From contig JBBTSX010000005.1 in the NCBI GenBank assembly GCA_038064535.1, forward strand, positions 13,051 through 77,050: a DNA stretch of 64,000 nt, given 5' to 3'. A model generated the notes under the pieces. The model did not search any database, had not been told where the DNA came from, and was given only the letters and a program-made list of their open reading frames with translations. Of the stretch, positions 2,746 through 60,261 are shown piece after piece. Made by a program: the position numbers and the translations under genes. Position 1 is the first letter of the stretch. Every line of letters starts with the position of its first letter. The DNA is from Patescibacteria group bacterium (GTDB lineage: Bacteria > Patescibacteriota > Minisyncoccia > Phycocordibacterales > UBA2100).

Positions 2746-3057
2746 CTGGCTTGTCCCAAGCATCGTAATCATGATGCCGGCACGGACGTCGATGGGAAGA
2801 ATTGAGATAATGCAGTAGTAGGGCGCCCCCGCGAGGCCGAGAAGCCACTGACCCGCGTGCGTCGGCGGACCGTTTTTGTACGTCTTTGTCGACGGCGTCC
2901 ATATGTACACGCCGCCGCGCGGCGGGCCGACGTAGGCGATGATGGCGTTGTTGTAGCAGGGGGAAACTTGCGAGGCTTGGCCGCCGAACGGGAAGGCAAG
3001 CGCGAGTGCGGGGAAGAGAAGGGTCACTATCGCGACTGCTGTAGCCGGTGCACGCAT
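2743..3057 (-). CDS. small hypothetical secreted protein (signal peptide MRAPATAVAIVTLLFPALALA)
   Basis: ORF 2743..3084; start re-picked at the internal Met preceding a signal-peptide-like segment. No recognisable homology. Confidence 0.35.
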   Translation of the reverse strand: MRAPATAVAIVTLLFPALALAFPFGGQASQVSPCYNNAIIAYVGPPRGGVYIWTPSTKTYKNGPPTHAGQWLLGLAGAPYYCIISILPIDVRAGIMITMLGTSQ

Positions 3058-3123
3058 GCATGTAGTATACGGTATTTCAGACACGGCGCGTGGTCTTGCG
3101 AGGTATACTTATTCTATATATGG

Positions 3124-3246
3124 ACCCCGTTAGAAACCGCGGTCGCTCGGCGGCAATCCCGTTCCAGTCGAACAAACCTATACAAGTATGAGTGACTTTA
3201 ACGACCCGCAAGACTTTCGACCGCGACCTGTTTCTAACGGGGTGGG
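3124..3246. repeat. palindromic intergenic element, copy 2 (ACCCCGTTAGAAACC ... GTTTCTAACGGGGTG) enclosing the start of the 3188 gene
   Basis: Arm variant GAAAC; extended imperfect pairing CGCGGTCG/CGACCGCG inside. Confidence 0.8.
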
Positions 3247-4126
3247 ATGGGCACGCCTACACCCGTACCTATCCGCCCTGATTGCGGCGGGTGCGTTCCT
3301 TGTGTTCGGCATACTCGTGGTGGGGTACCGTGCATCACAACCGCAAGGTGGCAATCTGCAAGTGTGGGGAGGCGGACCGGACGCTTTCCTCAATCCGACA
3401 TCGTATGCACCCGGAGCTACGGTGGGCACACAAATAGAGACCATCGGCGGCGGGAACACGCCGGTATTCAGTGCCCTGCGTCCGCAACAGCAAACCGGCG
3501 AACAAAATGAGACAAGTGGAGGGTTTGATATTTCTCTGTTCATCGCGGGACTTTCTCAACCAAACGCGGACACCGCGGCGGCACCTGTTTCGGGCCGGCC
3601 GGATCTGAGTCTCGCGTATTCTTTCATTCCGAGCGGGCTGGTCGCGACGACGACACCCGGACCGAAGCGAAGCGCACTGCAGGAATCGCTCTATCAATAC
3701 GGCAACGATGTAGGCTCGTACATATCCACATACGAGGCCGCCGGCGCGAATACCGGACAGGTGCTCACGGACCAATTGAACGACCGGCAAAACCCGCAAA
3801 AAGCGCAGGCGGTGCGCGATATCGGCACGGCATTGCAGGCGGCCGGTAAAACCTTACAAGGAATCGAAGCCGTCCCTTCTATTGTGTCTTCGGCGCATAC
3901 CGCTCTCGCGGAGAGTTACATAGAAGCCGGTATCAAGCTCTCGCGCGTGCCCGACGCGCAGAGCGACCAAGACTTCATCACCGCTATACAGGACTACAAC
4001 ACCGCCGCCGAACGGCTCGGGCGCAACTACGTCGCGCTCGCGAACGTTTTCTCGGGTGCAGGTGTGAGATTTGCACCGCAGGACCCGGGGTCGGTGTTCA
4101 ATTTCTCCGGCAATGCCGGACTGTAG
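3188..4126 (+). CDS. hypothetical membrane-anchored protein, first gene of the plus-strand secreted-protein/T4SS-like cluster
   Basis: 312-aa ORF with an N-terminal TM helix (LSALIAAGAFLVFGILVVG). Its start is overlapped by a repeat arm; alternative GTG start near 3238. Confidence 0.55.
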   Translation: MSDFNDPQDFRPRPVSNGVGWARLHPYLSALIAAGAFLVFGILVVGYRASQPQGGNLQVWGGGPDAFLNPTSYAPGATVGTQIETIGGGNTPVFSALRPQQQTGEQNETSGGFDISLFIAGLSQPNADTAAAPVSGRPDLSLAYSFIPSGLVATTTPGPKRSALQESLYQYGNDVGSYISTYEAAGANTGQVLTDQLNDRQNPQKAQAVRDIGTALQAAGKTLQGIEAVPSIVSSAHTALAESYIEAGIKLSRVPDAQSDQDFITAIQDYNTAAERLGRNYVALANVFSGAGVRFAPQDPGSVFNFSGNAGL

Positions 4127-17950: not shown

Positions 17951-17959
17951 TTATCCACA
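17951..17959 (+). promoter_or_regulatory. perfect DnaA box TTATCCACA upstream of dnaA
   Basis: Exact consensus 9-mer about 90 bp upstream of the dnaA ATG. Confidence 0.7.
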
Positions 17960-18049: not shown

Positions 18050-19399
18050 ATGACGACAAACAGAGAATTATGGCAAAATGCGCTCGTTCAGATCGAATTG
18101 GGAACATCGCAGGCATCGTTCCGCACGTGGTTCAGGAACACCGACATCGCCTCGCGCGATACGGGCACCGTCCAGGTGGCTGTCCCGTCAAAAATCGTGA
18201 AAGAATGGCTCATGGAGAAGCACCACAAGCTCATACTGAAGGCGCTCCGCGGTCTCGACAACACCGTACGAACCGTTGAGTACGTCGTGCACCGCACACC
18301 ACCTTCGGCAGAGCGTAAGGTGCCGCGTCCTCAGCCGGCGGAAAATGCTTCATTCGATCTTCAGTCTCTTTATATAGACAAGCGCGACAATTTAAACCCG
18401 AGGTATACGTTCGAAACCTTCGTCGTGGGTCCGTTCAACCAACTCGCGCACGCAGCGGCAAAGGCCGTGCTCGAACGACCGGGTCTTGCATACAATCCGC
18501 TTTTCATCTATGGGCAAACCGGCCACGGTAAGACGCACCTCATCCAAGCGGTAGGGAACTATTTCAAAAAATCGCACGCAAACAAAAAAGTGCTGTATGT
18601 TACCTCGGAGCGGTTTGCCGTTGATTACATTAATTCGGTGCGCGCGGGTCGCGCCAACAGCTTCAAAGACCAGTACCGGCAGTACGACGTACTCATCATG
18701 GACGACGTGCAGTTCATCGCCAACACGGAAAAGACACAGGAGGAATTGTTTCACCTGTTCAACGCGCTTCACGACAACAACAAGCAAATCGTGTTCTCCA
18801 GCGACAAGCACCCGACACTGCTCCCCGGATTTGAAGACCGGCTCAAAGGGCGCTTCTCGGCCGGCATGATAGCGGAGATACCGGAGCCGGACGTGGAGTC
18901 GAGAATTGCCATAATTAAAGCCAAGATAGAGCAACACGGCTTCTCGCTTCCCGACGACATCATCCAGTACATCGCCGAGAACGTGCGCGGCAACATCCGC
19001 GAGCTTGAGGGTGCACTCAATATGATTGTCTGCAAGTCACAGCTCAAAGGCAAGGCGATATCGCACGCCGACGTGCGCGCGCTCATCAAACACAACGTGA
19101 AGCCAAACAGGGGTGTCTCCGTTGACGAAGTGGTACGGAGAATCGCGCAGTACTACGAGATACCGGAGAAGAGCATCTACGAGAAGACCCGTAAGAAGGA
19201 GGTGGTGAAACCGCGCCAGATTATTATGTACATGTTGCGCGAAGAATTCAGTGTCTCGTACCCCTCGATAGGGGAGAAGCTCGGTGGACGCGACCACACG
19301 ACGGTCATTCACTCGTGTGAAAAAATAAAAGAGGAGTTGAAAATGAACAATTCGCTTGAGCAGGAGATCGACCACATCCGCACACTCATTCACGCATAA
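18050..19399 (+). CDS. dnaA: chromosomal replication initiator protein DnaA
   Basis: AAA+ Walker A GQTGHGKTHL. Box VII and C-terminal DNA-binding helix GGRDHTTVIHSCEKI. Confidence 0.95.
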   Translation: MTTNRELWQNALVQIELGTSQASFRTWFRNTDIASRDTGTVQVAVPSKIVKEWLMEKHHKLILKALRGLDNTVRTVEYVVHRTPPSAERKVPRPQPAENASFDLQSLYIDKRDNLNPRYTFETFVVGPFNQLAHAAAKAVLERPGLAYNPLFIYGQTGHGKTHLIQAVGNYFKKSHANKKVLYVTSERFAVDYINSVRAGRANSFKDQYRQYDVLIMDDVQFIANTEKTQEELFHLFNALHDNNKQIVFSSDKHPTLLPGFEDRLKGRFSAGMIAEIPEPDVESRIAIIKAKIEQHGFSLPDDIIQYIAENVRGNIRELEGALNMIVCKSQLKGKAISHADVRALIKHNVKPNRGVSVDEVVRRIAQYYEIPEKSIYEKTRKKEVVKPRQIIMYMLREEFSVSYPSIGEKLGGRDHTTVIHSCEKIKEELKMNNSLEQEIDHIRTLIHA

Positions 19400-19638
19400 T
19401 GTCGCCGATAACCCTGTGGACAAACCCTGCGTAGAGCACTCACAACACACCGAACAACATCATGATAACTTCACCAAACAGTATCCGGAGTGAGTTGTCC
19501 CCGTTCTCTGCACATTTCGCACATCAGTTCTCAACAGTTCAAAATATCCAAACCACCTAATCAAACATTCACTTTAATTCACTTCTCCACATTATCCCCA
19601 GTACTAATAGAAGTAATAGTATTTAAATAAGAAAAGGT
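19400..19638. promoter_or_regulatory. oriC-like region between dnaA and dnaN: degenerate DnaA boxes (TGTGGACAA, TTATCCCCA, ATATCCAAA) and an AT-rich unwinding-element-like stretch at 19600-19640
   Basis: One-mismatch DnaA boxes plus TAATAGAAGTAATAGTATTTAAATAAGAAAAGG immediately before dnaN. Confidence 0.5.
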
Positions 19639-20736
19639 ATGAAGATAATAACAACAAAAGAAAAAATTCTAAACACCATTCTTATGGCAGAGAGAGTTAC
19701 GGGAAAAAAAGAGTCTCTTCCTGTTCTTGCTTGCATTTTCGTTGAAGCCGCAAAAGATATTACCCTCCGCGCGACGAATCTCGAGGCAGGCTTCGAATCA
19801 GTGGTGCCGGGAGAAGTTGGTGAAGTGGGGGCCGTTGCGGTACCGGCCGCCATCCTTTCACAAACGATACGCTCAATCGGCAGTGACAAGGTCGCCTTTT
19901 CTACCGATGATTCGAATCTCCTCGTGGAGTCACGGGGGACCAAAACACTCATAAAAGCGATACCACACGACGAGTTTCCTGCGTTACCGAAAAGCGCCGG
20001 GAAGAATAAAATTTCTCTTTCACGCGAGCGACTTATACACGGGATACAGGCGGTTTGCTACGCCGCTTCACCATCAATGATTCGTCCCGATCTTGGCTCT
20101 GTATACCTTTCGATCAAGGACGGTGCGATGGTATGTGTCGCGACCGACTCGTTCCGTTTGGCCGAGAAAACAGTGAGTGAAAGCGGTGCCAAGGCCGAGG
20201 GCGACGTGCTTATCCCCTTGAAGCACGCGCTCGAGCTTGTGCATATTCTCGAACACGCCGGTGACGACTCGGTGTCGCTCTCCGCCGAAGAATCACAGCT
20301 ATCGGTTTCGGCCGGGGGCATGCGTTACGTGTCCCGCGTGGTGGATGCGACGTTCCCGAACTACAAAGAAATTATTCCGAAAAAATTTACGACCGAGGCG
20401 ACGGTACTCAAAGGCGACCTCGTTGAAATGTTACGCAAGGCGCGTGTGTTTGCGGGGAACGACATGCACGTGGGTCTCCACATTTATCCGAAGAAGAAAA
20501 TATTTTCCGCGCTCGCACGCAGCTCCGATGTGGGAGAAATGTCCGACTCAATCGATGCGGCGCTCTCCGGCGAGGACCTCGACATCAATTTCCATATCGG
20601 CTACATCGCCGACTGTCTCTCATCCGTAGAATCCGATTCCGTGACACTCGGTTTTGCCGGTGCCGGTAAACCACTCGTCATCCGCGGCGTCTCCGATTCC
20701 TCTTTTCTCTATCTCGTCATGCCGCTGAACCGGTAA
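19639..20736 (+). CDS. dnaN: DNA polymerase III beta sliding clamp
   Basis: 365 aa directly after dnaA; clamp-like three-domain length. Confidence 0.9.
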   Translation: MKIITTKEKILNTILMAERVTGKKESLPVLACIFVEAAKDITLRATNLEAGFESVVPGEVGEVGAVAVPAAILSQTIRSIGSDKVAFSTDDSNLLVESRGTKTLIKAIPHDEFPALPKSAGKNKISLSRERLIHGIQAVCYAASPSMIRPDLGSVYLSIKDGAMVCVATDSFRLAEKTVSESGAKAEGDVLIPLKHALELVHILEHAGDDSVSLSAEESQLSVSAGGMRYVSRVVDATFPNYKEIIPKKFTTEATVLKGDLVEMLRKARVFAGNDMHVGLHIYPKKKIFSALARSSDVGEMSDSIDAALSGEDLDINFHIGYIADCLSSVESDSVTLGFAGAGKPLVIRGVSDSSFLYLVMPLNR

Positions 20737-27733: not shown

Positions 27734-28021
27734 CTACTTATACAGTGGTTTTCCACTGAAACGCGATATTTGCTCCAAACGGCGGCTTACAGAAAAGTTT
27801 TATACTCTACGAACTGATGCGCTTTACCGTGCGTCGGTCGCTCACTTGGGGGCGGTGGCAACATCGAGAATCCCGGAGAGCAGTTCCCAGAGTATATCGG
27901 AGCGTACGTTCCGAGACAGTGCGGGAATCGTCGGCTAGAGCACAGAGGTGTCGGGCGCGCAGCGAGGAGATCATATCGATTTGCTCCGGACCTAGCACTT
28001 ACTCGAAATAGTCGAGAACGA

Positions 28022-28050
28022 AAAAGCCTCCCGCAAGGGAGGCTTTTCGT
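28022..28050. terminator. intrinsic terminator hairpin AAAAAGCCTCCCGCAAGGGAGGCTTTTCG
   Basis: Stem-loop with flanking A and T runs in a gene-free stretch. Confidence 0.6.
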
Positions 28051-28162
28051 ACCGTGCGTACGTGCACCTATTGTACGCGCTCAATTTTCAATATTTCCTC
28101 TTATCCACAAAAAGAATCACGGCCGCCTCTGTTGAGGCGGCCGTTCAATTGGTGTCCCGACC

Positions 28163-52332: not shown

Positions 52333-53091
52333 ATGCTGAAAGAACTGCAGGACATGGGACTTTCGGAAAAAGAGGCGCGTGTCTACCTCGCCGCTTTGGA
52401 ATTGGGCCAGACGACGGCCGAGAAACTCGCGAAACACGCCAAGGTCAACCGCTCAACGACCTACGTGCAGCTCGAATCGCTCATGAAAATGGGCCTCATG
52501 AGTACGCATGAAGAGGGCAAGAAAACGATGTTCGCTCCCGAATCACCCGAGCTCCTCAAGCGTCTTCTCCTCAAGCAGAGGGACGAGGTCAGCATGAAAG
52601 AGAGCCATCTTGTGGAGCTCTTGCCCGCGCTTTTACAGCAATACGAAGGTGCAGGGGAGCGCCCAGTGGTACGGTTCTTCCCTGGTAAAGAGGGGATTGC
52701 AACGGTGCGTGAGGAGGTTTTGAGTACGAAAGATAAACAACTGTACGTGATAATGTCCTCCGATAATATGTCAAAACTATTCACTGAAAAAGAGCTTGAT
52801 GGGTATACCGCAAGACGAACGGCTCTCAATATAAGTTCGAAGGCCATTTATACGCACCGCGGCTATTTCGACCAGGCCGGAGCCGACGCACTTACCGAGC
52901 ACCGCTTCCTGCCCAATCTCCCGCTCACTATCGATATCCGCATATTCGACGACAAAACTGCGCTTTTCTCGCTGCAGGGTGCACTTTTTGCGATGGTTAT
53001 CGAGAGCAAGCAAATCGCTTCAAGTATGAAAATGATATTCAATCTCCTGTGGAATCAGGGTGAGCGTTCGAAGAAAGACGCGAAAAGATAA
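52333..53091 (+). CDS. TrmB-family transcriptional regulator
   Basis: N-terminal HTH GLSEKEARVYLAALELGQTTAEKLAKHAKVNRSTTYVQLESL. Confidence 0.7.
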   Translation: MLKELQDMGLSEKEARVYLAALELGQTTAEKLAKHAKVNRSTTYVQLESLMKMGLMSTHEEGKKTMFAPESPELLKRLLLKQRDEVSMKESHLVELLPALLQQYEGAGERPVVRFFPGKEGIATVREEVLSTKDKQLYVIMSSDNMSKLFTEKELDGYTARRTALNISSKAIYTHRGYFDQAGADALTEHRFLPNLPLTIDIRIFDDKTALFSLQGALFAMVIESKQIASSMKMIFNLLWNQGERSKKDAKR

Positions 53092-53445
53092 AAAGAATGT
53101 CGGGGACGTGTTACGGCCCCCGACGACGCTTCTCAACTTGCTAGCACCACGTGGCTAGCGGTGGCTCCGCAGAGGAGCCAAAAAGTGACAACGACTTCTG
53201 CAGCTAGTCGCCGCCGAACAGCCACGGTTGCTTCGTTTCCTGTGCCATGATGTCCCCGCCGATGATCGCCGGGACGCACAGGGTGGGAAGCAGCGTGGCG
53301 GTCTGATATTTCATCAGGTCCTCCATTGCCGACTTACGAGCCTGAGAATTTGCGGCAGGCCCTGTATAACCGCATCGAGGACAAGAAAGAACACCTCGAT
53401 ACCAAGAGACTATCATAGTCAAAGTAAATTGACAACTTATGTGTC

Positions 53446-53532
53446 TGTGGATAACGGTATTTGTTATACGATACTGATGTTTCTATATGTCAAATAGGGC
53501 TCTATTTAGAGCCAAAATGGACTTATCCACAC
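53446..53532. promoter_or_regulatory. pair of perfect, inverted DnaA boxes (TGTGGATAA at 53446-53454; TTATCCACA at 53524-53532) in an AT-rich non-coding island
   Basis: Exact consensus 9-mers about 70 bp apart, followed by a perfect 20-bp palindrome CTGTCAACGCGCGTTGACAG at 53538-53557. Confidence 0.5.
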
Positions 53533-53684
53533 AACAACTGTCAACGCGCGTTGACAGAAATACAACTGGGTATAAAGTGCAGATGTCTATGAATAATAAC
53601 AACAAAGCACCGCCGTAGGTTCTAGGTTGTCAGTGTTCAGGGACAGGTCGAAATTACAAGGTTTGTATAGAGAAAAGACGGATT

Positions 53685-53980
53685 ATGACAAAAGATAACG
53701 GGCCGCCGAGCGATGGGAAGGAAGAGGAGGGGAAGGAAGAGGAAAAAGAAAGTGAGAAAGAAGAGTTGGGAGGCAGGGGGGATTAATCAACTAACAGCAT
53801 CAGTATGGAACAAAGTAAGAATCATGGGCCGCCGGAAGGAGAAGCGTGAGGATGAATTATCAACATAACAAGAATCGATATGAAAGGAGGAAGAGGTAAG
53901 CCATCTGGTGACGGAAACGACTAATATGGACACCAGTGGGATACATGGGCCGCCGGACGCCCACGAAGAAAATCGTCCGA
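53685..53980 (+). repeat. about 2.5 degenerate tandem repeats of roughly 120 bp, each containing (A/T)GGGCCGCCG(G)A and a purine-rich tract. In one frame they encode short acidic peptides sharing H/N-G-P-P-(E/D/S).
   Basis: Core copies at about 53697, 53824 and 53945. Tiny ORFs MTKDNGPPSDGKEEE..., MEQSKNHGPPEGEA, MDTSGIHGPPDAHEENRPTPR. Confidence 0.45.
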
Positions 53981-53981
53981 C

Positions 53982-54056
53982 ACCGAGGTAGCTCAACGGG
54001 CAGAGCATCAAGTTCGGAACTTGACCGCGGAGGTTCGATTCCTCCCCTCGGAACCA
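53982..54056 (+). tRNA. tRNA-Pro (anticodon CGG), CCA encoded
   Basis: Cloverleaf by hand: D-arm GCTC/GAGC, anticodon loop TTCGGAA, T-arm GGAGGTTCGATTCCTCC, 3' CCTCGGA-A-CCA. Position 1:72 is an A.A mismatch. Confidence 0.75.
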
Positions 54057-54059
54057 AAA

Positions 54060-54096
54060 ACAGAAAACACCTCTTGGGAGGTGTTTTCTGTTTTTC
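54060..54096 (+). terminator. intrinsic terminator AGAAAACACCTCTTGGGAGGTGTTTTCTGTTTTTCC
   Basis: Perfect hairpin followed by a T-run immediately after tRNA-Pro. Confidence 0.75.
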
Positions 54097-54292
54097 CGCG
54101 AGGGAGCGAGACATCTGCATGTCTCGCGTGGGGATTCGAACGCCGGAGCGATGTGCGGCGAGCTCGCCGCACCGCGCGTCGGTGCCCAGACAAAGCTGCG
54201 CGTCGGCGCGGTTTTAGTCGAGGGAGAATCCTCGCCTGGCTATGCGAAGCACAGTATCCGTGACCGGATCCTCCCCTCGGAACAAAATGTGT

Positions 54293-54883
54293 TCAAGAAA
54301 CTTTTTTAACTATCAAGAGACCAAGCTCCTTTCCGAATTTCGACGACATTGCGCGGTCAAGCATGGCGAGGTCGACAGTAAGACGCTGTTTTCTTGTAGG
54401 TTTTGGGTCTACGAGGACAGCCGTCCGGGATTGCAGGTCGACGGACTCAACAAGAGCGTCATGTATGCGTGCCACAGACTCCTTCCCTGCATGGATTTCG
54501 TGCGAATGATACTCGACCCAGACGTCCTCGTTATATTTGATATGTTCCGCGATGAGATTCGAGAGACCTCGTATCTCGGAGTGCATATGCGCCTCAAGCG
54601 TGAGGCCGATGTTTTTACTTTTGAGCAACGCGTTGATTGTGTCACAAGAATTGACCGTGGAAATTCCCTCGTCGAAGTTGAAACGCGTCATGATAGGCAT
54701 GTCGACGCGGAATGCGTTTACGTCATCAAGACCAATCTTGGCGCCGAGTTGTATTGCCAAGTCCTCTTGGTCGTACAGGCCGAATCCGCCGCGATAGAGA
54801 ACCATCTGCAAACATGCAGCCGCACAACATTTCGGTTTTTGTACCAGCGGAATATACCTGGGATTCAAAGTAATCGCGCTCAT
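54293..54883 (-). CDS. papain-like cysteine peptidase, C39-like (bacteriocin-processing peptidase family-like)
   Basis: QKPKCCAAACLQMVLYRGG resembles the C39 catalytic Cys motif (Q...CGAACL). Lower-GC gene between two tRNAs. The opposite-strand ORF 54242..54949 is judged spurious. Confidence 0.45.
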   Translation of the reverse strand: MSAITLNPRYIPLVQKPKCCAAACLQMVLYRGGFGLYDQEDLAIQLGAKIGLDDVNAFRVDMPIMTRFNFDEGISTVNSCDTINALLKSKNIGLTLEAHMHSEIRGLSNLIAEHIKYNEDVWVEYHSHEIHAGKESVARIHDALVESVDLQSRTAVLVDPKPTRKQRLTVDLAMLDRAMSSKFGKELGLLIVKKVS

Positions 54884-55010: not shown

Positions 55011-55072
55011 GTTTCTCGTTCGCTCCCGTAAGCATAGCTTTCGGAAGCGTCAGTCGGGAGAAATGAAAGCAA
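55011..55072 (+). pseudogene. mini pseudo-tRNA: duplicate of the tRNA-Arg 5' flank and acceptor (CTCGTTCGCTCCCGT) and 3' acceptor and flank (CGGGAGAAATGAAAG), with the tRNA body replaced by about 26 nt
   Basis: 15-nt and about 15-nt direct repeats of the ends of the tRNA at 55095-55166, located 75 bp upstream. Confidence 0.5.
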
Positions 55073-55094
55073 GCTTTCGTTTCGTCCCTCGTTC

Positions 55095-55166
55095 GCTCCC
55101 GTCGTTCAATGGATAGGACGCATCCTTGCGGAGGATGCAATGTAGGTTCGATTCCTACCGGGAGCA
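55095..55166 (+). tRNA. tRNA-Arg-like (anticodon read as GCG)
   Basis: Acceptor GCTCCCG/CGGGAGC, anticodon arm CATCC-TTGCGGA-GGATG, T-arm GTAGGTTCGATTCCTAC. The GCG anticodon is unusual for bacteria. Confidence 0.6.
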
Positions 55167-59135: not shown

Positions 59136-59675
59136 CTAGAGCCCGAGGAACTCGAGGATTTTGTGCGGGAGCGGCTCTTTCATGTGCCGCTCTTCCGCAT
59201 GCTCTTTGAGGTAGCTGCGAATCTCGCGCGGGTCGACGTGTTCAATCGGAATGATGAGATTGGGCGCGAGGATTTTTGTGGTGTCGACGAGCAGAAGCGG
59301 ACGGTGGTGCGGATGTTCGTCCTCCACCCAGAAGGCGATAATCTCGCGATAGCGATGCAAGGTGCCGTTGATGCGGATGCCGCGGTCGGAAATCTCGAAT
59401 TGCGTGATGTCCGGCGCCTGCCGCGACTGCAGTGCGATGGTAATCGCCGCGACGAGAATCAGAATCGCAAAAAGGACGTCGTGAAAGAGAATGCTCGTGA
59501 CGGCGATGGACACAGCAACGATACCGAGTGCCAAATACCAGTCACTTCCGCGCTCGACATGTTCGTGCTCATACGCACTCCAATGCAAAACTACGTTCTG
59601 GTTGGGCATGTAGGATATTGTATCGCGTTTCCAGTGAATATCTTCCAGATATAGAGCAATTTGCTTGTGGTACAC
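59136..59675 (-). CDS. hypothetical membrane protein (two TM helices plus a bacterial PH-like C-domain?)
   Basis: 179-aa ORF; hydrophobic pair LALGIVAVSIAVTSILF / AILILVAAITIAL. Confidence 0.4.
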   Translation of the reverse strand: MYHKQIALYLEDIHWKRDTISYMPNQNVVLHWSAYEHEHVERGSDWYLALGIVAVSIAVTSILFHDVLFAILILVAAITIALQSRQAPDITQFEISDRGIRINGTLHRYREIIAFWVEDEHPHHRPLLLVDTTKILAPNLIIPIEHVDPREIRSYLKEHAEERHMKEPLPHKILEFLGL

Positions 59676-60168
59676 TGGATGGATGGCTGAGCGGTATAAA
59701 AGAAATCCGAACGTGAACTGTTTTGTCTGCCATAAACCCGTATACAGACGACCGTCTCTGCTCAGAGCCAGTAGTGGTCGAGCGTTTTGTGGGCAGCTTT
59801 GCTATGGCATTTCACAAAGAATAGAAACGCCGTGTATCGTTTGCGGTTCGCCAATTGTCGCCAGCAAGAACGCACAGACCTGTAGCAGGGCGTGCGCCAA
59901 CAAACATAGAGCAGGTATTAAATATAAAATTGGTCGACCGCGGGACAAGGTCGTGAGAGAACGCTCTATGAAGATTCGACTTATTGAGCAGCGAGGTGCG
60001 AAATGTGAACGATGCGGCTATAGCAAGGTTGAAATATTGCATGTGCATCACAGAGACAGAAACCGGAAAAATAATACATTAGAGAATTTGGAGTTGGTTT
60101 GTCCGAATTGCCACTACGAGGAACATTATTTAGAAAAAAGCTGGCTTAGTGATACTGTAAACGATTGA
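59665..60168 (+). CDS. HNH endonuclease with an N-terminal Cys-rich zinc-finger-like region
   Basis: CERCGYSKVEILHVHHRDRNRKNNTLENLELVCPNCH is a canonical HNH motif. AT-richer than its surroundings; abuts tRNA-Ser. Confidence 0.7.
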   Translation: MWYTGWMAERYKRNPNVNCFVCHKPVYRRPSLLRASSGRAFCGQLCYGISQRIETPCIVCGSPIVASKNAQTCSRACANKHRAGIKYKIGRPRDKVVRERSMKIRLIEQRGAKCERCGYSKVEILHVHHRDRNRKNNTLENLELVCPNCHYEEHYLEKSWLSDTVND

Positions 60169-60172
60169 ACAG

Positions 60173-60257
60173 GGAGGGGTGGCTGAGCGGTCTAAAGCAC
60201 CGGTCCTGAAAACCGGCGTGGGGAAACCCACCGTGAGTTCGAATCTCACCCCCTCCG
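60173..60257 (+). tRNA. tRNA-Ser (anticodon TGA), type II with long variable arm
   Basis: Acceptor GGAGGGG/CCCCTCC, D-arm GCTGAGCGGTCTAAAGCAC, anticodon arm CCGGT-CCTGAAA-ACCGG, variable stem GCGTGGGGAAACCCACC, T-arm GTGAGTTCGAATCTCAC. C at position 33. Confidence 0.75.
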
Positions 60258-60261
60258 CACG

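Follow-up and report, generated by a model that had tools for sequence, protein, structure and literature searches.

What occupies the longest stretch of this DNA that lacks an ordinary gene? The DNA analyzed here is a 64,000-nucleotide segment from an ultra-small Patescibacteria group bacterium of groundwater (Hainich; the segment is hereafter the window), and the stretch in question, 53092–54241 (1150 bp), is the longest in it without an open reading frame (ORF) of at least 100 aa. Its G+C content is 0.49 against 0.56 for the window. Within it, ahead of a tRNA gene, lies an island whose plus strand has a purine content of about 0.69–0.72 across 53585–53981. An earlier note, made from the sequence alone, had called this island the largest apparently non-coding stretch of the window. 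The description is right as far as long ORFs are concerned and fails at the left end, since 53100–53330 holds a 40-aa minus-strand ORF and terminator hairpins.

Our analyses suggest that the island serves a non-canonical tRNA(CGG) gene as its promoter and translated 5' leader, in which stalled ribosomes would gate or stabilize the tRNA precursor, and we put the probability of this reading at about one half. Direct reading and comparison with relatives establish the order of the unit: a predicted sigma-70 promoter with a fixed DnaA box, a near-leaderless mini-ORF of the form M-x-N-N-N-x-[G/A/S]-P-P-stop, further mini-ORFs without a Shine-Dalgarno (SD) sequence, the tRNA(CGG) and a terminator. 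These further mini-ORFs number one to four and carry motifs of the RAPP-like form [H/N/K/R]-[G/A/S]-P-P, in which the two prolines are mostly written CCG CCG. The link between the Pro-Pro (PP) codons and the tRNA(CGG) directly downstream of them, which the earlier note did not draw, is the key to the locus.

Distribution of the module

Relatives of the locus were collected from the loci of homologs of the preceding TrmB-like gene in species-representative genomes, from contigs encoding close homologs, and by a metagenome scan for the core of a palindrome in the island. The TrmB-like protein (52333–53091) is only a generic winged helix-turn-helix protein by Pfam and NCBIfam. It is identical in GCA_964357015.1 and in several Hainich groundwater assemblies, and its relatives bear the labels Kaiserbacteria, Adlerbacteria or Paceibacterota. 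Contigs L001–L006, which belong to the same population, are identical and therefore carry no comparative signal.

The shared architecture of promoter, PP mini-ORF leader and RNA was found in 19 distinct loci of Kaiserbacteria-like Patescibacteria. Fifteen of them have the unusual kind of tRNA(CGG) behind the leader (the window, L083/84, L085–L088, L091–L093, L007, L008, L013/79, L080, L082 and L037). One (L012) has an odd relative of this tRNA as its cargo, and three (L025, L028 and L060) have an unrelated hairpin RNA. The chromosomal context, with the module after the TrmB-like gene, is the same across genera. The module was not found at the TrmB loci L089, L090 and L094; in L094, a Y1 (IS200-like) transposase gene (2824–3279, minus strand) lies at the island position downstream of the TrmB-like gene. 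The GPP mini-ORFs that the earlier note had picked out in the window are conserved in these relatives, both in motif and in position.

The mini-ORF array is under coding constraint

The earlier note listed three tandem mini-ORFs of 33, 14 and 21 codons, all of which are present, and missed a fourth that is the most conserved. This mini-ORF 1 (53589–53618, plus strand) encodes MNNNNKAPP, or MSMNNNNKAPP when read from 53583, with the two prolines written CCG CCG directly before the stop. Its orthologs in other loci read MSMGNNNRAPP, MSMTNNKTGPP, MFMENNKEQPPP, MINNNNGPPNY, MTVNNINAPP and MFMLNNNKGPPSDSFE, each ending in a stop, and, in a longer peptide, MSMNNNSQRAPPS. Mini-ORF 2 (53685–53786, plus strand; 33 aa, MTKDNGPPSDGKEEEGKEEEKESEKEELGGRGD) contains an in-frame 15-nt duplication at 53715–53743, detected by the program TRF. 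It is called as a gene in the L003, L005 and L006 assemblies, and in L084 it keeps 34 codons despite strong divergence, with a 3-nt indel. Mini-ORF 3 (53805–53849, plus strand; 14 aa, MEQSKNHGPPEGEA) differs from its L084 counterpart by a 6-nt in-frame indel. It is followed by a mini-ORF without PP (53880–53924, plus strand; MKGGRGKPSGDGND), which has a counterpart at the same place in L084 (MKNIMFPPRDENE), and by mini-ORF 4 (53926–53991, plus strand; 21 aa, MDTSGIHGPPDAHEENRPTPR), in which PP ends at 53955 and the stop UAG lies inside the tRNA. At L002:4069 (window position 53742), in a low-coverage assembly, TAA replaces GAA within the acidic tail of mini-ORF 2, and a G-to-T change lies inside the tRNA; these may be sequencing errors, or the tail of mini-ORF 2 may be dispensable.

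The PP motifs of the window are KAPP before a stop, NGPP, HGPP and HGPP. Relatives use RAPP (L083, L091 and L093), RGPP (L080), HAPP, QGPP and TGPP, and their later units read, among others, ...NHGPPE, ...NNGPPA, ...DHAPPE, ...RGPPS, ...RAPPT and ...EPP-stop. The number of mini-ORFs per leader varies from 1 to 5. The residue before PP is G in 22 cases, S in 5 and A in 4, the one before that is H in 10, N in 8, K in 5 and R in 2, and the position after PP is a stop in 8, E in 7, S in 4, N in 4 and G in 3.

The array is real and, judged from its patterns of substitution and composition, under coding constraint. Across 12 leaders with 48 ATG-initiated ORFs of at least 5 aa, PP occurs in 35 and [GAS]PP in 30, while dinucleotide shuffles gave 0.9 ± 0.9 PP-ORFs (maximum 5 in 1000) and the reverse strand gave none among 19. 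In the same leaders, 37 of the 39 CCNCCN hexamers follow the reading frame of an ATG-ORF that contains them. Compared with L084, its closest relative (86% identity), the window shows indels of 3 and 6 nt inside ORFs and of 2, 2, 4 and 8 nt between them. The Pro, Gly, Asn and His codons vary synonymously, and the motif is written with GGG or GGA, GCA, and CCG, CCA or CCT.

These data bear on the possibility that GGNCCGCCG is an untranslated nucleic-acid motif, for example a repeated binding site for a protein or RNA, with the ORFs incidental. The sequence GGGCCGCCG does occur in three exact copies in the window, at 53700, 53826 and 53947. However, relatives write GGA CCA CCA, GGG CCT CCA, GCA CCG CCG and AGC CCG CCG, so that the peptide is kept and the bases are not, and both the hexamers, in frame downstream of an ATG, and the indels respect the reading frame. 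We consider this explanation extremely unlikely. The copies of GGGCCGCCG stand 126 and 121 nt apart. As DNA, the tandem repeats of about 120 bp given in the earlier note are weak, and the island is not a true DNA tandem repeat: repeat units 2 and 3 are alike only in a 33-nt core (76%), and TRF sees only the 15-nt duplication of mini-ORF 2.

Another suggestion of the earlier note was a small-peptide or small RNA array close to a C39-like peptidase gene. [quoted passage not shown] The small ORFs do stand in tandem, some end in GGD, and the [IL]GGD of the divergent ORFs described below loosely resembles double-glycine leaders. Yet no C39 peptidase or ABC exporter was found by Pfam or NCBIfam among the 45 large ORFs scanned across the window. 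The mini-ORF peptides are 8–35 aa long, hydrophilic and rich in Asn, Lys and Glu, have no hydrophobic segment and no N-terminal secretion or membrane signal, and lack the leader and core organization of precursor peptides. Only X-G-P-P is conserved in them, their number varies between loci, and the last ORF ends inside the tRNA. The array itself therefore stands and its secretion does not, and we see hardly any chance for the secreted-peptide explanation. Conservation of just the X-G/A-P-P motif and its position would be expected for cis-acting stalling leader peptides rather than for secreted peptides. Many of the plus-strand mini-ORFs end in GGD-like residues before the stop (mini-ORF 2 of the window, ...GGRGD; L083, ...GGGD; L086, ...TGGD; L087, ...RGGD; L091, ...GGGGGD).

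The tRNA(CGG) and its link to the leader

The tRNA gene at 53982–54056 (plus strand) was identified by ARAGORN and Rfam, and its cloverleaf is supported by covariation over 12 sequences, in which 94% of the pair cells are paired and 14 of the 21 pairs show a compensatory change. It is non-canonical in having the anticodon loop UUCGGAA, with A37, and an A1xA72 mismatch, in addition to A73 and an encoded CCA. A37 is present in all 11 tRNA(CGG) sequences aligned, the twelfth row being the odd tRNA of L012 with its 6-nt anticodon loop, and position 1:72 is AxA in 9 of the 12 sequences and GxA in one. By comparison, G37, C1-G72 and a quite different body are seen both in the clade's own tRNA-Pro(UGG), from the same contigs, and in tRNA-Pro(CGG) from more distant lineages of the candidate phyla radiation (CPR). 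To our knowledge, G37 is universal in tRNA-Pro. A role of G37 in charging by ProRS is described for E. coli (PMC8643618). A comparison of the 77 tRNAs in the fetched loci gave no clear donor or closest family for the unusual tRNA(CGG). The A37 and the open 1:72 pair may mark a specialized role in Pro-Pro decoding rather than in ordinary elongation. The relative in L012 (2699–2771, minus strand) has an A1-U72 pair and, according to ARAGORN, a 6-nt anticodon loop ('anticodon cg'); ahead of it stand the promoter of the module and two PP mini-ORFs (MIRESRKPPPIRVAA, ending in a stop, and one beginning MNTRTREPPNNN).

Two properties connect the leader with this tRNA. The first is codon choice: CCG accounts for 55 of the 72 PP codons (76%), against 33.4 (46%) expected from neighboring genes (binomial p = 2e-7, with loci that are not independent). 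CCC is nearly absent from these positions, and CCG is the sole codon cognate to the anticodon CGG. CCG is also the most used proline codon of these genomes, with about 51% of the proline codons in the window. The second is geometry. In 13 of 16 loci, the distance from the end of the last PP to tRNA +1 is 26, 26, 22, 20, 27, 21, 16, 23, 25, 21, 25, 21 and 26 nt, with 26 nt in the window, and the stop of the last ORF falls between -19 and +18 of the tRNA start; in the window, this UAG is U8-A9-G10 of the tRNA. A ribosome covers about 15 nt 3' of the first P-site base. On this footprint, a ribosome at the last PP is computed to leave 6–17 nt free before the tRNA, and a terminating ribosome to reach -10 to +27, which corresponds to the RNase P leader contact or to the acceptor and D arms.

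The minimal form of the module, in L085, consists of the promoter, one ORF (MFMLNNNKGPPSDSFE) and a tRNA 4 nt past its stop, with a leader of about 53 nt. In the window, a promoter and terminator scan of the plus strand at 53600–53980 gave no promoter-like or terminator-like site. Because the L085 leader is a single ORF and no such site separates the mini-ORFs from the tRNA, we take the tRNA to be made from a translated precursor. The canonical tRNA-Pro(UGG) genes on the same contigs of relatives have neither PP mini-ORFs nor DnaA boxes upstream, and the tRNA-Arg, tRNA-Lys and tRNA-Ser genes of the window have neither cognate mini-ORFs nor boxes upstream.

In its layout, with a small ORF whose successive codons specify a single amino acid, here enriched in CCG, and then a gene connected with this amino acid, the locus recalls transcription attenuation by leader peptides. 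A ribosome on the PP codons would then choose between a terminator and an antiterminator, or expose a Rho site, and thereby set read-through into the tRNA. In some loci a hairpin does separate the last PP from the tRNA, formed by CGGACG and CGTCCG in the window (with a G.U pair in L084) and by GCGATGGG and CCCATCGC in L013. However, no hairpin is common to the loci, the plus strand of the leader has no terminator-like site, several leaders are unstructured, and the leader of L085 is too short for alternative structures. Rho prefers C-rich, G-poor sites, unlike this purine-rich, C-poor leader. We regard attenuation as unlikely. Rfam searches, of the whole window at the gathering score and of 52900–54500 at E <= 5, returned tRNAs and nothing else credible, with no T-box, riboswitch or small RNA.

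Sister loci with a hairpin RNA

In three loci (L025:5385–5500, L028:5392–5512 and L060:1405–1535), the same DnaA-box promoter and PP leader precede a conserved long-hairpin RNA of about 120 nt that stands in the place of the tRNA. Its sequence follows the scheme AGGUGU..GCCCCGCCCCAAGCGCA..GCUCUCGG..AGAGCG..GCGCUUGGGGCGGGG..ACAUCU, with 3 compensatory pairs and a z score of -7.5. Downstream of it come a terminator and a pilB-like gene. The last PP-ORF extends into the 5' arm of the hairpin RNA. This RNA has no match in Rfam and was not found in the window. The module may therefore be better described as a Pro-Pro-stalling leader that would gate a downstream structured RNA, with the tRNA(CGG) as its common cargo.

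The occurrence of one module ahead of two unrelated structured RNAs is also what one might see if the mini-ORFs were translated without being regulatory. Ribosomes would then protect the long precursor, chaperone it or aid its processing, or the ORFs would be by-products of selection for an unstructured, A-rich leader. The A/G-rich, unstructured leaders and the Asn/Lys/His-rich ORFs fit this explanation as well. Still, it leaves unexplained the near-universal [G/A/S]-P-P, which belongs to a class that impedes ribosomes, the CCG bias and the fixed spacing of the last PP, and we think it improbable.

The promoter and the DnaA boxes

The sigma-70-type promoter, TTGACA-16-TAAAGT (53551–53578, plus strand), emerged from the promoter scan, as the one good plus-strand promoter of the island, and from an alignment of 12 loci. 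TTGACA, TANNNT 16 nt later, a G at offset 34 and an ATG at offset 38 are each found in 12 of 12. From sigma-70 geometry we infer that transcription starts at G53585, with only 4 nt (GUCU) ahead of the AUG, so that mini-ORF 1 would be effectively leaderless.

The DnaA-box 9-mer TTATCCACA at 53523–53531 (plus strand) starts exactly 28 nt before the -35 element, with 19 bp between the two, and its center lies about 58 nt upstream of the predicted transcription start. The box is perfect in 15 of the 19 loci and has one mismatch in the other four, and its 28-nt offset to TTGACA is found in all 19. Because it is locked at this distance, the plus-strand box behaves as a fixed promoter element, and DnaA is a candidate regulator of the promoter. 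Downstream of the box lies the perfect 20-bp palindrome CTGTCAACGCGCGTTGACAG (53538–53557). Of the two inverted -35-like halves that the earlier note saw in it, the right one is the actual -35 element, and TGTCA-N8-TGACA is kept in most relatives.

Further upstream, the 150 bp before the -35 element align without gaps in 12 loci. An inverted repeat, GTCAA-N6-TTGAC (53418–53433), stands in register about 133 nt upstream of the -35 element in this alignment and is a candidate operator. The second DnaA-box 9-mer, TGTGGATAA (53446–53454, minus strand), is perfect in the window and appears in relatives as a looser TGTGnATAw with 0–2 mismatches. Alignment and direct reading further give a conserved block, TTGTTATAC ... 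ATGTCAAATA (53461–53496), which is a candidate divergent promoter: its minus strand can be read as TTGACA-19-TATAAC and its plus strand as TTGTTA-17-TATATG. A 16-bp palindrome, GGCTCTAWWTAGAGCC (GGCTCTATTTAGAGCC), at 53498–53513 is found in nine distinct loci including the window and is degenerate in L085, L087 and L037. As its stem never varies, it reads as a candidate protein operator rather than a proven RNA hairpin. As a whole, the conserved upstream elements resemble operators plus a divergent promoter that would serve the small minus-strand ORF.

The two inverted DnaA boxes, the 20-bp palindrome and the other motifs listed in the earlier note were all recovered by direct reading and sequence tools; only the coordinates of the second box, given there as 53524–53532, needed correction by one nucleotide. 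The note had offered as candidates a locus of DnaA titration or regulation, or the origin remnant of an integrated replicon. A datA-like titration site, a cryptic or second origin, or such a remnant would be in keeping with two perfect inverted boxes 77 bp apart around an AT-rich segment, and with a window that is rich in boxes: it has four perfect copies of TTATCCACA, including these two, and 22 boxes with at most one mismatch, against 7.1 ± 2.7 in shuffles. But the island holds two boxes only, one of which is locked to the -35 element in 19 loci while the upstream one is degenerate in relatives, and a chromosomal context conserved across genera speaks against an integrated element. The origin is expected elsewhere. 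The window contains rpmH-rnpA-yidC, dnaA (18050–19399) and dnaN (19639–20736), with DnaA boxes, and the cumulative GC skew has its minimum at 14–20 kb and rises steadily through 53 kb, without a turn there. On skew and gene content, the chromosomal origin is therefore expected near dnaA, about 34 kb from the island. Titration and origin functions are in our opinion very unlikely, and only the regulatory half of the earlier proposal is supported.

A perfect DnaA box lies at 17951, upstream of dnaA, and three boxes with one mismatch lie in the dnaA-dnaN spacer (19415–19600); this region is the probable oriC and matches the minimum of the GC skew. Separate from dnaA, the segment 27369–28259 forms a second cluster, of five DnaA-box-like 9-mers with at most one mismatch within about 900 bp, all on the plus strand and one of them perfect (28101). 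It includes a 429-bp stretch without a long ORF (27734–28162).

A possible mechanism

How could translation of the leader act on the tRNA? Ribosomes would enter at the 5' end, pass from each ORF to the next by re-initiation and stall at every Pro-Pro site. The stop-rich (C/T)TAAC strings that precede the internal ORFs suggest that ribosomes terminate and then re-initiate as they move along an unstructured leader. If a ribosome parks at the last PP, about 16–27 nt before tRNA +1, the tRNA and the RNase P site would stay free, and one running on to the stop, between -19 and +18, would cover or unwind the 5' acceptor strand. Ribosomes stalled close to the 5' end may in addition shield the precursor from 5'-end-dependent decay. 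Slower Pro-Pro translation, through scarce Pro-tRNA(CGG) or low activity of elongation factor P (EF-P), would then yield more mature tRNA(CGG) in a homeostatic feedback, to which the DnaA box could add an input from replication or growth state. We favor a mechanism independent of RNA structure, because neither a terminator-antiterminator pair nor a shared structure was found and several leaders are unstructured.

A bolder version of this proposal is ribosome-gated maturation of a stable RNA, which would be a new kind of gene control. Ribosome parking on the array of arrest mini-ORFs would decide the folding of the tRNA(CGG) and its cutting by RNase P, the sister loci would carry the 120-nt hairpin RNA as an alternative cargo, and the tRNA would autoregulate through its own codons under a DnaA-controlled promoter. 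We offer this version tentatively, as possible and rather less than probable.

Several observations weigh against a regulatory leader of the kind proposed here. The 19 loci are phylogenetically related, and counts over them overstate their independence. In L008, only one of six PP codons is CCG, and the spacing of 16–27 nt is broken in L037 (101 nt), L091 (69 nt) and L012 (35 nt). Nascent chains of 8–11 aa are short for arrest peptides, and only 1 of 25 internal ORFs has an SD sequence, which makes their translation dependent on re-initiation. Minimum free energy folds of 12 leaders, with and without the tRNA, gave no shared hairpin, no alternative pairing between leader and tRNA, and no conserved RNA switch; many leaders fold at only about -5 kcal/mol, and several are essentially unstructured. 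The hairpin cargo of three loci means that the module is not strictly a tRNA(CGG) autoregulator. Finally, the sign of the regulation, in which poor Pro-Pro translation raises tRNA output, is a guess.

Comparison with known systems

The closest parallels to the mini-ORFs are the RAPP-like arrest peptides ('RQH family'), which comprise SecM (RAGP), ApcA (RAPG), ApdA and ApdP (RAPP), and upstream ORFs with RGPP, HAPP, HGPP, QAPP or TGPP; the known cases stall with Pro-tRNA at the A site (PMC10987492, PMC12992588, PMC10951233). RAPP, HGPP, HAPP, RGPP, QAPP, QGPP and TGPP are counted among the RAPP-like arrest motifs, and RAPP and RGPP are refractory to EF-P (PMC10987492, PMC12992588). As in that family, a short co-directional upstream ORF carries X-[A/G]-P-P, often at or near its C terminus, and HGPP occurs twice in the window. 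The leader motifs here also count as strong X-PP-X or PP-stop contexts in the terms of work on EF-P. The published RAPP-like set has R, Q or H, and also T, at the first motif position; Asn and Lys, which fall outside it, occupy that position here as often as His and Arg do. Unlike the known members, the present leader peptides have no signal or membrane segment, come in tandem units of which the first is near-leaderless, show no RNA structure hiding a downstream ribosome-binding site, and precede a tRNA or hairpin RNA gene instead of sec, yidC or another protein gene.

Leader-peptide attenuators include those of his, trp and pheST (pheM), and the Pro-codon leaders mgtL and mgtP of Salmonella. 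They share with our locus tiny leader ORFs in which consecutive codons specify an amino acid tied to the downstream gene, so that ribosome speed reports the supply of charged tRNA. They differ in that no terminator-antiterminator pair was found here, the product is the very tRNA that reads the sensor codons, and the units number one to five. Leaderless polycysteine short ORFs of mycobacteria are described as Cys-responsive attenuators in a preprint (bioRxiv 10.1101/834739). They resemble the present array in a leaderless or near-leaderless first ORF, in consecutive codons for one amino acid and in control of a downstream region of the same transcript. Their targets are protein-coding members of operons, whereas the cargo here is a stable RNA and the codons form a stalling motif at the peptide level.

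DnaA-box-controlled promoters are known from the autoregulation of dnaA, from nrdAB and from sda of B. subtilis, among others. The consensus TTATCCACA at a fixed promoter-proximal position and the intact dnaA gene of the window are in line with them, although DnaA control here is putative, and we know of no DnaA-box-controlled tRNA promoter. In Firmicutes, the ermC leader and STAB-SD are examples of stabilization of transcripts by ribosomes stalled at the 5' end. A ribosome near the 5' end of the present leader could likewise shield the transcript from 5'-end-dependent decay, and RNase Y is encoded in related loci; here, however, no drug is involved, the proposed stall is intrinsic to PP, and the protected cargo would be a tRNA precursor. 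T-box riboswitches offer a functional analogy only, as 5' leaders that sense the state of a specific tRNA and control a translation-related gene. Our locus has no Rfam T-box match, specifier loop or T-box sequence, and sensing would take place through translation.

Neighboring features

A third of the island, on its left side, belongs to a separate divergent unit. This unit consists of a 40-aa minus-strand ORF (53204–53326, MEDLMKYQTATLLPTLCVPAIIGGDIMAQETKQPWLFGGD), which is called as a gene in L001–L006 and has no Pfam or NCBIfam match, and of its terminator, a G+C-rich hairpin of 9 pairs with a minus-strand T-run found by the terminator scan just past the TrmB-like gene (53099–53124). Counterparts in L085–L088, L013 and L080 are poorly conserved, with a recurring [IL]G[GD]D[IVL] and a C-terminal GGD or GDD, and their alignment is too poor to define a family.

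On the other side of the tRNA, a repeat search and direct reading gave an intrinsic terminator with an 18-bp perfect stem and a T-run (54056–54095, plus strand). It is followed by a G+C-rich structured insert, separate from the leader module (54096–54287), the last 19 nt of which repeat the 3' end of the tRNA (54269–54287 versus 54040–54058). L084 keeps the insert with a conservation of about 90%, one compensatory change (GGCGAGCTCGCC to GACGAGCTCGTC) and a deletion of 40 nt; L086 and L087 lack it and have the next gene directly against the tRNA. The insert has no match in Rfam, resembles a small structured element inserted at the 3' end of the tRNA with an att-like duplication, and possibly encodes an RNA.

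Two other tRNA genes of the window have unusual surroundings. A 15-nt sequence, CTCGTTCGCTCCCGT, lies across the 5' end of tRNA-Arg(GCG) (55088–55102, with the tRNA at 55095–55166) and has an exact copy 73 nt upstream (55015–55029), with 0.02 occurrences expected from shuffles; the anticodon GCG is uncommon among bacterial tRNA-Arg. An ORF for an HNH endonuclease (59665–60168) ends 4 nt before tRNA-Ser(UGA) (60173–60258).

Conclusion

To conclude, leader peptides, RAPP-like arrest ORFs, leaderless sensor ORFs and DnaA-box promoters are each known singly; their combination before a cognate tRNA gene is not. Full-text literature searches on tRNA-gene leaders and on this type of tRNA gave no description of leader ORFs controlling a tRNA gene, and we know of no tRNA gene that is controlled by translation of its own 5' leader. 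The locus is a concrete, sequence-defined candidate for such control, with a logic built into it, since the sensor codons are cognate to the product, and with a conserved geometry that gives clear predictions. With it, the RAPP-like family of arrest motifs comes to include Patescibacteria, very short peptides and RNA targets. The locus also suggests that, in organisms with few regulators, DnaA may act on a tRNA promoter as a transcription factor, and it draws attention to a clade-specific tRNA(CGG), with A37 and A1xA72, that reads the most used proline codon of these genomes. Annotators would label the region as empty intergenic DNA and 'tRNA-Pro', and the comparative signature described here is searchable across CPR genomes. 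Ribosome-gated processing by RNase P, if true, would be categorically new.

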